Shown here: piece by piece, positions 60,843-62,249 of the stretch
Numbering within the stretch: position 1 is the first letter of the stretch
How the letters are laid out: each line of letters begins with the position of its first letter
Source: Escherichia phage slur07
DNA: 64,000 nt
Reading direction: 5' to 3' (one strand)
Sequence record: NC_028780.1
Made by a program: the position numbers and the translations under genes
Notes under the pieces: model-generated
Database searches by the model: none
What the model saw: only the letters and a program-made list of their open reading frames with translations
What the model was told of the DNA's origin: nothing

Positions 60843-60915
60843 TGGGAATTAGCCAAGTTGGTAAGGCACTGGATTTTGATTCCAGGATGCAAAGGTTCGA
60901 GTCCTTTATTCCCAG
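60843..60915 (+). tRNA. tRNA-Gln (anticodon UUG)
   Basis: Cloverleaf: acceptor TGGGAAT/ATTCCCA, anticodon stem CTGGA/TCCAG with loop TTTTGAT, GGTTCGAGTCC T-loop. Confidence 0.85.
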
Positions 60916-60916
60916 C

Positions 60917-61003
60917 GCGAGAATGGTCAAATTGGTAAAGGCACAGCACTTAAAATGCTGCGGAATGATTTCCTTGTGGGTTCGAGTCCCACTTCTCGCA
61001 CCA
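60917..61003 (+). tRNA. tRNA-Leu (anticodon UAA), long variable arm
   Basis: Acceptor GCGAGAA/TTCTCGC, anticodon loop CTTAAAA, T-loop GGTTCGAGTCC, encoded CCA. Confidence 0.85.
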
Positions 61004-61008
61004 AATTT

Positions 61009-61082
61009 GCGGATATCGTATAATGGTATTACCTCAGACTTCCAATCTGATGATGTGAGTTCGATTCTCATTATCCGCTCCA
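61009..61082 (+). tRNA. tRNA-Gly (anticodon UCC)
   Basis: Acceptor GCGGATA/TATCCGC, anticodon loop CTTCCAA, T-loop AGTTCGATTCT, CCA. Confidence 0.85.
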
Positions 61083-61086
61083 ATTT

Positions 61087-61737
61087 ATGACTCGTCGTGA
61101 GACGCTCAGTTCTTTATTAGGGACTGATATGCATTTTTATCTTTATAAAATAACAAATAAAATTAATAATAAAATTTATATTGGTGTGCATTCTACCGAA
61201 AATTTAGATGATGGATATATGGGTTCTGGTAAATTATTAAAAAGAGCCCAAGATAAATATTGTATAGAAAATTTTTCTAAAGAAATATTAGAGTATTTTG
61301 ACGATAAAGAATCTATGCTTGAAGCCGAGAAAAATATTGTCACAGAAGAGTTTTTAAATAGACCAGATGTGTATAATTTAAAACTTGGAGGTGAAGGTGG
61401 ATGGGATCATATAAATAATTATCCTATGACAGATCAGCAACGCGAATTAATTTCATTGGGTGTTAAAAAGGCACATTCTAACGGAAAATTAAAAGGATGG
61501 TCTTCAAATGGATTAATGAAGAATGGCTTTGCTGGTAAAACTCATTCTCAAGAAGCTAAACGTAAAATAGCAAAAGCAAACGAAGCAAAAGTTTCTGCGG
61601 ATGAAAGAAAAAGAAGAATAGAAATTTCTAAATTATATGATTTTTCTAAACGTGGCGAATTGTCTAAATATGCTAAGCATATTGGCGTAAGTCATACTCA
61701 AGCAAAAAGAATTCTAAATCAAATTAACAATATATAA
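61087..61737 (+). CDS. segB: GIY-YIG homing endonuclease embedded in tRNA cluster
   Basis: ORF between tRNA-Gly and tRNA-Ser; FYLYKITNKINNKIYIGVHS GIY-YIG module and DDGYMGSGK shared with segE; start may be ATG 61129. Confidence 0.82.
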   Translation: MTRRETLSSLLGTDMHFYLYKITNKINNKIYIGVHSTENLDDGYMGSGKLLKRAQDKYCIENFSKEILEYFDDKESMLEAEKNIVTEEFLNRPDVYNLKLGGEGGWDHINNYPMTDQQRELISLGVKKAHSNGKLKGWSSNGLMKNGFAGKTHSQEAKRKIAKANEAKVSADERKRRIEISKLYDFSKRGELSKYAKHIGVSHTQAKRILNQINNI

Positions 61738-61743
61738 ATATTT

Positions 61744-61833
61744 GGAGGCGTGGCAGAGTGGTTTAATGCACCGGTCTTGAAAACCGGCAGTCGCTCCGGC
61801 GACTCATAGGTTCAAATCCTATCGCCTCCGCCA
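61744..61833 (+). tRNA. tRNA-Ser (anticodon UGA), long variable arm
   Basis: Acceptor GGAGGCG/CGCCTCC, anticodon stem CCGGT/ACCGG with loop CTTGAAA, T-loop GGTTCAAATCC, CCA. Confidence 0.85.
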
Positions 61834-61839
61834 GTTTTT

Positions 61840-61915
61840 GCTGATTTAGCTCAGTAGGTAGAGCACCTCACTTGTAATGAGGACGTCGGCGGTTCGATTC
61901 CGTCAATCAGCACCA
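61840..61915 (+). tRNA. tRNA-Thr (anticodon UGU)
   Basis: Acceptor GCTGATT/AATCAGC, anticodon loop CTTGTAA, T-loop GGTTCGATTCC, CCA. Confidence 0.85.
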
Positions 61916-61916
61916 A

Positions 61917-61991
61917 GGCCCTGTAGCTGGAAGGTTCAAGCAAGCGACTCATAATCGCCAGATGGTGGTTCAATTCCACCCAGGGCCACCA
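61917..61991 (+). tRNA. tRNA with CAU anticodon (Ile-lysidine type or Met)
   Basis: Acceptor GGCCCTG/CAGGGCC, anticodon loop CTCATAA, T-loop GGTTCAATTCC, CCA. Confidence 0.8.
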
Positions 61992-62003
61992 AATTATGAA
62001 TTA

Positions 62004-62090
62004 GGGGAGTTATCCCGTAGAGGTAGCGGTGTGGACTGTAAATTCATTGTCATTGCGACTCGGGTGGTTCGACTCCACCACTCCCCACCA
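62004..62090 (+). tRNA. tRNA-Tyr (anticodon GUA), long variable arm
   Basis: Acceptor GGGGAGT/ACTCCCC; anticodon loop CTGTAAA; variable arm GTCATTGCGAC resembles bacterial tRNA-Tyr; T-loop GGTTCGACTCC, CCA. Confidence 0.7.
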
Positions 62091-62094
62091 ATTT

Positions 62095-62169
62095 GGATGT
62101 GTAGCTCAATGGCAGAGCGATCGCCTGTTAAGCGATTGGTTATAGGTTCGAATCCTATCACGTCCGCCA
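62095..62169 (+). tRNA. tRNA-Asn (anticodon GUU)
   Basis: Acceptor GGATGTG/CACGTCC, anticodon stem ATCGC/GCGAT with loop CTGTTAA, T-loop GGTTCGAATCC, CCA. Confidence 0.75.
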
Positions 62170-62173
62170 AATA

Positions 62174-62249
62174 CGAGGCATAGCTCAGAAGGAAGAGCAA
62201 GGACCTTCTAAGTCCTGGGTCGTAGGTTCGATCCCTACTGCCTCGACCA
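62174..62249 (+). tRNA. tRNA-Arg (anticodon UCU)
   Basis: Acceptor CGAGGCA/TGCCTCG, anticodon stem AGGAC/GTCCT with loop CTTCTAA, T-loop GGTTCGATCCC, CCA. Confidence 0.85.

Follow-up and report, generated by a model that had tools for sequence, protein, structure and literature searches.

The window analysed here is a stretch of 64,000 nucleotides (nt) from Escherichia phage slur07 (NC_028780.1). Its transfer RNA (tRNA) genes, at 60843-62249, probably represent a T4-like tRNA operon in which a recombinant endonuclease cassette has replaced tRNA-Pro, endonuclease-linked exchange being the likely explanation for the differences from the tRNA set of T4. The open reading frame (ORF) of the cassette, at 61087-61737 between tRNA-Gly and tRNA-Ser, appears to be a modular recombinant in which the leader and catalytic domain of T6/T4 SegB are joined to a C-terminal domain of another lineage. 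The new element is this domain-swapped SegB relative, which sits in a different slot and is inconsistently labelled in GenBank; the cluster itself is ordinary. Many sequenced T4-like phages share the arrangement, which is not unusual, and most of its biology has been published: the homing of SegB in tRNA clusters in 2008 (PMC2330249) and the anti-defence role of T6 tRNA-Tyr in 2026 (PMC13096335). Our analysis covers the anatomy of the cluster, its homologies and breakpoints, population counts and selection.

ARAGORN, run on the whole 64 kb, gives nine tRNA genes, all on the plus strand and all within 60843-62249: tRNA-Gln (UUG; 60843-60916), tRNA-Leu (UAA; 60917-61003), tRNA-Gly (UCC; 61009-61082), tRNA-Ser (UGA; 61744-61833), tRNA-Thr (UGU; 61840-61915), a tRNA with a CAU anticodon (61917-61991), tRNA-Tyr (GUA; 62004-62090), tRNA-Asn (GUU; 62095-62169) and tRNA-Arg (UCU; 62174-62249). 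Features described below are also on the plus strand unless stated otherwise. The Rfam tRNA model scores eight of the nine at 59-74 bits against a threshold of 29 bits (Gln 67.4, Leu 59.3, Gly 65.8, Ser 62.6, Thr 73.5, Asn 74.1 and Arg 65.8 bits), and tRNA-Tyr, which has a long variable arm, has its best Rfam score on the tRNA-Sec model, below threshold. This and the other sub-threshold Rfam matches (Plastid-ycf2 and sX4) were set aside as tRNA look-alikes. The same nine identities and outer coordinates had been given by an earlier sequence-only reading, with which ARAGORN agrees throughout; its remark that most of the genes encode the CCA end holds for eight of nine, the exception being tRNA-Gln, which abuts tRNA-Leu. 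That reading had named the assignment of Pro in place of Tyr or Asn by tRNA software as the outcome that would overturn it, and ARAGORN calls Tyr and Asn and finds no tRNA-Pro in the 64-kb window. By alignment, tRNA-Gly is identical in the window, T4, T2 and an endonuclease-free relative (L010), tRNA-Tyr matches that of T6 at 87 of 87 positions, tRNA-Asn is identical to the T2 gene, and tRNA-Arg is an allele different from that of T4.

The differences in tRNA content become clear when the gene orders are compared. In T4 the order is Gln, Leu, Gly, Pro, Ser, Thr, Ile(CAU), segB, Arg, rnaD and rnaC, with eight tRNAs, among them Pro but neither Tyr nor Asn, in line with the sequence-only reading; in the window it is Gln, Leu, Gly, the ORF, Ser, Thr, the CAU tRNA, Tyr, Asn, Arg, rnaD and rnaC. 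The ORF thus occupies the Pro slot of T4, and Tyr-Asn occupy its segB slot. L010 has ten tRNAs and no endonuclease (Gln, Leu, Gly, Pro, Ser, Thr, CAU, Tyr, Asn, Arg), and L012, also endonuclease-free, has the same set plus His. The order is Gln, Leu, Gly, Thr, CAU, Tyr, segB, Arg in T6, Gln, Leu, Gly, Pro, Ser, a 133-amino-acid (aa) ORF, CAU, Tyr, Asn, Arg in T2, and an HNH endonuclease, Leu, Gly, the window-type ORF, Ser, Thr, CAU, Arg in Shigella phage CM8. In the compared layouts, every endonuclease-type ORF stands at a point where one or more tRNA genes are missing, and the comparison across T-even phages that the sequence-only reading had called for places each difference from T4 on an endonuclease slot. 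We propose that the operon has two slots filled by alternative cassettes, the Gly/Ser slot holding either Pro or the ORF and the CAU/Arg slot holding either Tyr-Asn(-His) or T4-type segB. The endonucleases would introduce double-strand breaks at tRNA 3' ends, which would then be repaired by recombination from a co-infecting relative.

The window belongs to Tequatrovirus, and a GenBank comparison shows its cluster region to be 97-99% identical to many Tequatrovirus genomes. The closest match of the region is Escherichia phage vb_EcoM_bov9_1 (98.7%), annotated with the same nine-tRNA order including the ORF; RB18 and AR1 have the same order with an added tRNA-His. Several side observations concern neighbouring slots in other phages. 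CM8 (NC_054939; locus L020, 1-1712) carries both the window-type ORF and an HNH endonuclease, annotated as such, that fills the tRNA-Gln slot; Tyr and Asn are lost from its cluster and six tRNAs remain. In T2 (AP018813; locus L018) the 133-aa ORF (5711-6112, minus strand) lies exactly at the position of the missing tRNA-Thr; it carries a NUMOD3 and helix-turn-helix-like module with 35-42% identity to the window ORF and no GIY-YIG domain, and may be another endonuclease or the remnant of one. T6 (AP018814; locus L016, 3143-3302) is without tRNA-Pro and tRNA-Ser, Gly and Thr being only ~11 nt apart with nothing encoded in the gap, and its annotated tRNA-Thr is missed by ARAGORN. The tRNA cluster is a hotspot for several endonuclease families.

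The limits of the cassette can be placed to the base. The window agrees base for base with the endonuclease-free allele up to and including the ATTTA that follows tRNA-Gly, and homology returns at the first base of tRNA-Ser; from these exact breakpoints it follows that a cassette at 61088-61743 replaces precisely the short spacers and tRNA-Pro. The cassette leader (61083-61128), defined by the breakpoint alignment, differs from the endonuclease-free allele from 61088 onwards. The window, after tRNA-Gly, and T6, after tRNA-Tyr, have the same left cassette junction, CCA followed by ATTTATGACTCG. This fits the cleavage reported for SegB, whose preferred cut at the ends of tRNA genes falls just 3' of CCAR (PMC2330249). 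A tRNA-Pro remnant in the leader was considered and rejected; the partial likeness (GCTCAGTT) reflects a generic D-arm motif, and T6 and Jiaodavirus have the leader as well.

The Gly-Ser gap of 661 nt contains one ORF, 61087-61737, which starts 4 nt after tRNA-Gly, ends 6 nt before tRNA-Ser and has a longest reading of 216 aa. Residues 17-85 of this reading match the Pfam GIY-YIG family PF01541 at 26.8 bits against a cut-off of 22.6 (E-value 6.6e-6), so that the GIY-YIG endonuclease seen in this gap by the sequence-only reading is borne out. The true start is probably the ATG at 61129, giving a 202-aa protein (609 nt). This start is favoured because it aligns with the starts of T4 and T6 SegB and of the Jiaodavirus homologue, and because the upstream frame is broken in Jiaodavirus and several GenBank records annotate the 609-nt version; the first ATG at 61087 was rejected on the same grounds. 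In the 202-aa protein the motif reads NKIYIGVH, with Y17 and G19 as in T6 SegB, the residues that were mutated to inactivate the T6 enzyme (PMC13096335). Codons 1-96 (61129-61416) form the GIY-YIG catalytic half, as defined by Pfam and by identity to SegB. The C-terminal half (61417-61737, including the stop codon), which has no SegB match, comprises a NUMOD3 motif (22.9 bits against a cut-off of 20.4) and a helix-turn-helix-like tail (a weak HTH_10 match in Pfam), and is presumed from these to be a DNA-binding domain.

The two halves have different relatives. In BLASTP the alignment with T4 SegB ends at SegB residue ~117. Residues 15-110 of the long reading are 94.8% identical to T4 SegB residues 1-96 and 98% identical to T6 SegB, and the catalytic half is 46-56% identical to SegA, SegC, SegD and SegE. 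The nucleotide sequence of 61143-61417 shares 98.9% identity with T4 segB over 275 base pairs (bp), above the flanking tRNA genes (Gln-Leu-Gly 96.3% from 60737, Ser-Thr 95.9%; the 3' part of Arg with rnaD and rnaC is at 89.9%). For the C-terminal 106 residues BLASTP found no match in T4 except an 18-residue NUMOD3-like stretch of SegC. The closest relative of this half is an ORF of the Klebsiella Jiaodavirus KP13MC5-5 (OP617748; locus L017, 2210-2818), which is without GenBank annotation, intact and likewise 202 aa long; identity is 82% in the C-terminal half and 71% in the catalytic half. It lies in the gap between tRNA-Gly and tRNA-Pro, directly after tRNA-Gly, and its last codons overlap the tRNA-Pro gene; Mineola, where it is annotated as a homing endonuclease, and other Jiaodaviruses carry a 220-aa variant at this position. 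Sliding identity follows the same division: the leader is 98% identical to T6 segB, 84-86% to two Jiaodavirus genes and 40% to T4, the catalytic core matches T6/T4 at 93-100% and the Jiaodavirus genes at 57-77%, and from ~61418 on identity is ~45% with T6/T4 and 80-94% with KP13MC5-5. The crossover falls inside a shared ATCATATAAAT at ~61408-61418. Against the Jiaodavirus copy, synonymous divergence amounts to 0.71 in the N-terminal and 0.32 in the C-terminal half, and the ratios of nonsynonymous to synonymous divergence (dN/dS) are 0.10 and 0.27, respectively; both halves are under purifying selection, and they have different histories. An annotated HNH endonuclease and the 133-aa ORF of T2 carry the C-terminal module as well, a spread typical of the shuffling usual among homing endonucleases.

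The sequence-only reading had named this ORF segB, as do RB18 and other records, and in its strict form this would make it a plain T4 SegB orthologue of unchanged specificity in a shuffled tRNA cluster. The catalytic half, which is of SegB type at 95% identity to T4 SegB and 98% to T6 SegB, and the location of the gene inside a tRNA cluster speak for that view. Similarity does not extend over the full length, however, as some 106 C-terminal residues have no detectable similarity to SegB and are instead 82% identical to a Jiaodavirus gene placed after tRNA-Gly; the slot is Gly/Ser and not that of SegB, which has the CAU tRNA (or Tyr) before it and tRNA-Arg after it; and the genome keeps the exact 27-bp SegB site that T4 and T6 have both lost. 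We regard plain orthology as improbable, and the name segB does not hold for the C-terminal half or for the slot. Other GenBank names for the ORF include segD, truncated SegB-like protein and homing endonuclease, or it is left unannotated. SegD, the annotation in AR1, was ruled out, being only 51% identical in the catalytic half. We found the variant described neither in the 2008 study (PMC2330249) nor in a 2010 review or the 2026 study (PMC13096335), only in brief GenBank notes such as "C-terminus divergent".

The SegB site retained by the window is a 27-bp match (62145-62171), identical to T2, to the published preferred T4 SegB cleavage and recognition site (GGTTCGAATCCTATCACGTCCGCCAAA), which was mapped inside the tRNA-Asn gene of T2L and differs from a weaker site in tRNA-Ser at G6, A16, G18, A26 and A27 (PMC2330249). 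The 27-mers of tRNA-Asn and tRNA-Ser in the window differ from each other at exactly these positions. Since the tRNA-Asn site is present, the phage would be a recipient for a segB of T4/T6 type, and an ORF enzyme with the preference of SegB would therefore cut its own genome. The site thus argues indirectly against the ORF product sharing the preference of SegB for this 27-mer of the tRNA-Asn T-arm and acceptor. T6 SegB is known to cut its own tRNA genes in vitro (PMC13096335). The core motif GGTTCRANTCC of SegB occurs eight times in the 64 kb, all in the operon, with 0.11 expected.

Expression of the ORF appears to be controlled in the manner of T4 segB. A 9-bp hairpin at 61106-61127 (-14.1 kcal/mol, z -2.3) covers the Shine-Dalgarno sequence AGGGA, and it is kept in the Jiaodavirus copy by pair-preserving substitutions. 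Comparable translational occlusion has been described for T4 segB, in addition to messenger RNA processing through tRNA maturation (PMC2330249), and translation from 61129 is probably held down in the same way. The RNase P site of tRNA-Ser follows 6 nt after the stop codon of the ORF. A T4 late-promoter-like motif, TATAAATA (61733-61740), overlaps this stop codon 3 nt before tRNA-Ser and might by its resemblance serve as a promoter. It occurs 25 times in the whole window, with 9 expected, and further copies lie at the domain crossover of the ORF (61410-61417) and after the operon terminator (62596-62603).

Another reading takes the ORF for a decaying, inactive remnant and the layout for a frozen accident. 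With 202 aa the protein is shorter than the 221-aa SegB, it is annotated as truncated in RB51, RB68 and vB_SsoM_113, one record matches in two pieces, and neither a solved structure nor a confident prediction supports the C-terminal fold. A length of 202 aa is shared by the Jiaodavirus homologue, though, and so is native to the lineage; the ORF is intact with a C-terminal half at least 99% identical in 51 records; dN/dS against the copy in another genus is low in both halves; catalytic Y17 and G19 are conserved; and the regulatory hairpin has been kept by pair-preserving changes. Decay is accordingly given a low probability.

The distribution of the layouts was determined by searching GenBank phages with BLAST, using junction-specific and composite queries and counting records covered to at least 80%; IMG/VR, queried via trna.2, gave only six related loci. 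The 3' half of the ORF has matches in 71 phage records of GenBank, near full length in 55 (RefSeq/GenBank duplicates included), and contiguous Gly-Pro-Ser is found in 448. The endonuclease therefore shows the presence/absence polymorphism among close relatives, with conserved flanks (55 versus 448 records), that is expected of a homing gene. The 3' half of T4-type segB is near full length in 67 of 123 matched records, and the CAU-Tyr-Asn(-His)-Arg block was found in 381. A composite query for both endonuclease types in one cluster was answered by none of 540 matched records, and one for the ORF followed by tRNA-Pro and tRNA-Ser by none of 624. The ORF and T4-type segB are mutually exclusive.

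A tentative extension of these observations is that the two SegB-family enzymes act as reciprocal gene drives in mixed infection, each erasing a different tRNA gene. One catalytic module would then be combined with different DNA-binding modules and inserted in alternative slots of a 1.5-kb operon, the window phage keeping the SegB site in tRNA-Asn and T4 keeping Gly-Pro-Ser, so that either genome would retain the target of the opposite enzyme. If true, such drives would explain why the two genes never co-occur, endonuclease competition rather than translation would be the main force on T-even tRNA repertoires, and the new C-terminal module would represent a second, tRNA-Gly/Pro-directed specificity that would also be usable for defence-driven amplification.

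Several points weigh against replacement of tRNA-Pro by an active endonuclease. Jiaodaviruses keep an intact tRNA-Pro after the related ORF, so that tRNA-Pro need not be the target and its loss in the window could be a secondary deletion. The DNA-binding role of the C-terminal domain is read only from the NUMOD3 match and a weak helix-turn-helix match. Structural comparisons were uninformative on this domain: a search of the 202-aa protein against PDB chains gave 0 matches (best E-value 0.45), the profile of the C-terminal module, compared with that of T4 I-TevI, gave a probability of 1.6%, and single-sequence AlphaFold2 modelling gave a mean predicted local distance difference test score of 51.9, with only residues ~160-200, which are helical, being confident. 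No late promoter lies upstream of the hairpin to account for a release of translation, and some annotators label the protein "truncated SegB-like". The exclusivity counts ignore shared ancestry and include duplicate RefSeq and GenBank records. That the ORF encodes an active nuclease and that its target would be the Gly-Pro-Ser allele are both inferred.

It could be argued that the tRNA set reflects translational adaptation, with tRNAs supplied for heavily used codons that the host reads poorly and the endonuclease an unrelated passenger. This is the classical view of the T4 tRNAs, and each of the seven core tRNAs reads an A-ending codon in frequent use here, CAA making up 70% of Gln, TTA 43% of Leu and AGA 30% of Arg codons. 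However, codon usage in long ORFs is nearly the same in the window and T4 for Pro, Tyr and Asn despite the different tRNA sets: TAT/TAC and AAT/AAC are equal, and CCA is used at 17.7 per 1000 codons in the window versus 15.0 in T4 (44% versus 42% of Pro codons). Codon adaptation therefore does not explain the loss of Pro or the presence of Tyr and Asn, and every tRNA difference falls on a slot of an endonuclease-type ORF, which leaves this alternative very unlikely.

Endonuclease-linked exchange, the explanation preferred here, has an experimental precedent. In crosses of T4 with T2L, segB is inherited at near 100% and T2L tRNA markers are lost, SegB driving the replacement of neighbouring tRNA genes (PMC2330249). 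The slot geometry, these crosses and the mosaic CAU and Arg alleles together point to gene conversion initiated by an endonuclease. The suggestion of the sequence-only reading that tRNA turnover is tied to the endonuclease is supported by the slot mapping, the published crosses and the T4-like codon usage.

A further possibility, which we consider doubtful yet more credible than adaptation, is that the tRNA set has been shaped mainly by host defences directed at tRNAs, with Tyr and Asn kept as supplements against defence and the endonuclease retained because its breaks permit their rapid tandem amplification, in the way shown for T6 SegB and tRNA-Tyr against Septu. T6 tRNA-Tyr, to which the window gene is identical, overcomes Septu when overexpressed or when its dosage rises through SegB-dependent amplification, and T4, without tRNA-Tyr, cannot escape (PMC13096335). 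The leader and catalytic domain of the ORF are 98% identical to those of T6 SegB, and the tRNA set is unexplained by codon usage. The tRNAs that vary from relative to relative (Tyr and Asn at 62004-62169, and His in AR1 and RB18) have GUN anticodons in a U33-G34-U35 context. Tyr, Asn and His are also three of the four substrates of colicin E5, a lead and not evidence. In the window, however, Ser, Thr and the CAU tRNA separate the ORF from tRNA-Tyr, the layout has no counterpart to the 718-bp amplification unit of tRNA-Tyr and segB in T6 (PMC13096335), and the microhomology used at the T6 amplification junction involved the 3' end of T4-type segB, which is absent from the ORF. Septu also cleaves T6 tRNA-Tyr, no known defence would render tRNA-Asn useful or tRNA-Pro dispensable, and the base-exact replacement of Pro by the ORF is left unexplained. 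The idea of the sequence-only reading that the phage tRNAs replace host tRNAs cleaved by anticodon nucleases is backed in the literature for tRNA-Tyr only, and there Septu cleaves in the variable loop, not the anticodon (PMC13096335).

The known systems closest to the ORF can be compared by what they share with it. T4 SegB (NP_049745; PMC2330249) is likewise encoded by a free-standing GIY-YIG gene in a T-even tRNA operon, with a hairpin occluding the ribosome-binding site upstream and a stop codon a few nt before the next tRNA; unlike the ORF, it has an unrelated C-terminal half and a leader of only 40% identity, lies in the Ile/Arg slot and replaces Tyr-Asn, not Pro. T6 SegB (AP018814; PMC13096335) shares with the ORF the leader (98% of nt), the catalytic domain and the left junction after CCA, in a genome with an identical tRNA-Tyr, but has a T4-type C-terminus and stands directly after tRNA-Tyr. 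The Jiaodavirus genes share the position after tRNA-Gly and the leader with its hairpin, but diverge in the catalytic half and lie in clusters of 14 or more tRNAs that keep tRNA-Pro, overlapping the ORF end. GIY-YIG endonucleases of the I-TevI/NUMOD-module type have the same architecture, an N-terminal GIY-YIG domain followed by NUMOD3 and a helix-turn-helix-like tail; I-TevI itself is intron-encoded, in contrast to the free-standing ORF, and its DNA-binding domain gave no significant profile match. F-TflI, F-TflII and F-TflIV of T5 (mentioned in PMC2330249) are homing-type ORFs among the tRNA genes of a different phage family and are likened to the ORF by position alone.

The CAU tRNA was called Met by ARAGORN from the anticodon alone, and the same gene of T2L is named tRNA-Met in the literature (PMC2330249). 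Alignment shows it to be the T2-type allele, which departs from the T4/T6 allele (T4 tRNA-Ile) after nt 12. Its closest E. coli match is 81.6% identical over all 75 nt and is annotated as tRNA-Ile in more than 5,300 genomes. The acceptor stem has C4-G69 and C5-G68, which we take to be TilS determinants. With a CAU anticodon and a body closer to bacterial tRNA-Ile2 than to tRNA-Met, it is most likely a tRNA-Ile2 of the lysidine type and not tRNA-Met.

Beyond the tRNAs, the cluster is followed, as in a T-even tRNA operon, by homologues of the two stable RNAs of T4 and a terminator. Alignment to the annotated T4 genes places the homologue of rnaD (species 2 stable RNA) at 62251-62370 and that of rnaC (species 1 stable RNA) at 62377-62515; Rfam has no family for either. 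The rnaC homologue carries a tRNA-like T-arm, GGTTCGAATCC, at 62493-62503, and the same T-arm core is found in tRNA-Asn. A strong intrinsic terminator (62566-62594) with a 10-bp stem, 7 GC pairs and a T tract closes the operon. Upstream of tRNA-Gln, at 60747-60773, the sequence contains a candidate middle promoter of T4 type, formed by a MotA-box-like TTTGCTTTA, a 12-nt spacer and TATTAT. A scan for sigma-70 promoters was at chance (9 found versus 8.4 expected), so the promoter assignment rests on homology to T4, in which a middle promoter lies just upstream of the tRNA cluster (PMC2330249). By that homology, a single transcript would run from just upstream of tRNA-Gln through the nine tRNAs, rnaD and rnaC to the terminator and would be cut into mature RNAs by host tRNA-processing enzymes.

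Additional ORFs were observed around the operon and elsewhere in the window. A 157-aa ORF (62644-63117), without a counterpart between rnaC and e.8 in T4, is flanked by terminator hairpins at 62566-62589 and 63125-63148 that differ by one base, and looks like a cassette inserted via recombination between repeated terminators. On the other side, between trna.2 and tRNA-Gln, a 174-aa ORF (60232-60756), with no Pfam match, is present in T2, RB18 and AR1, without a T4 counterpart, and is annotated as RB32ORF135c-like in relatives. A second GIY-YIG ORF of 205 aa (21537-22154, minus strand), whose first 40 residues are those of T4 SegE, adjoins a uvsW-like helicase ORF (20026-21534), as in T4.

If the C-terminal module changes target preference, the ORF and SegB would constitute a natural enzyme pair with one catalytic domain and two specificities, and a simple model of how competing selfish endonucleases add and remove single tRNA genes between close phages. 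This would bear on the recent finding that such tRNAs, together with SegB, aid phage escape from tRNA-cleaving defences.

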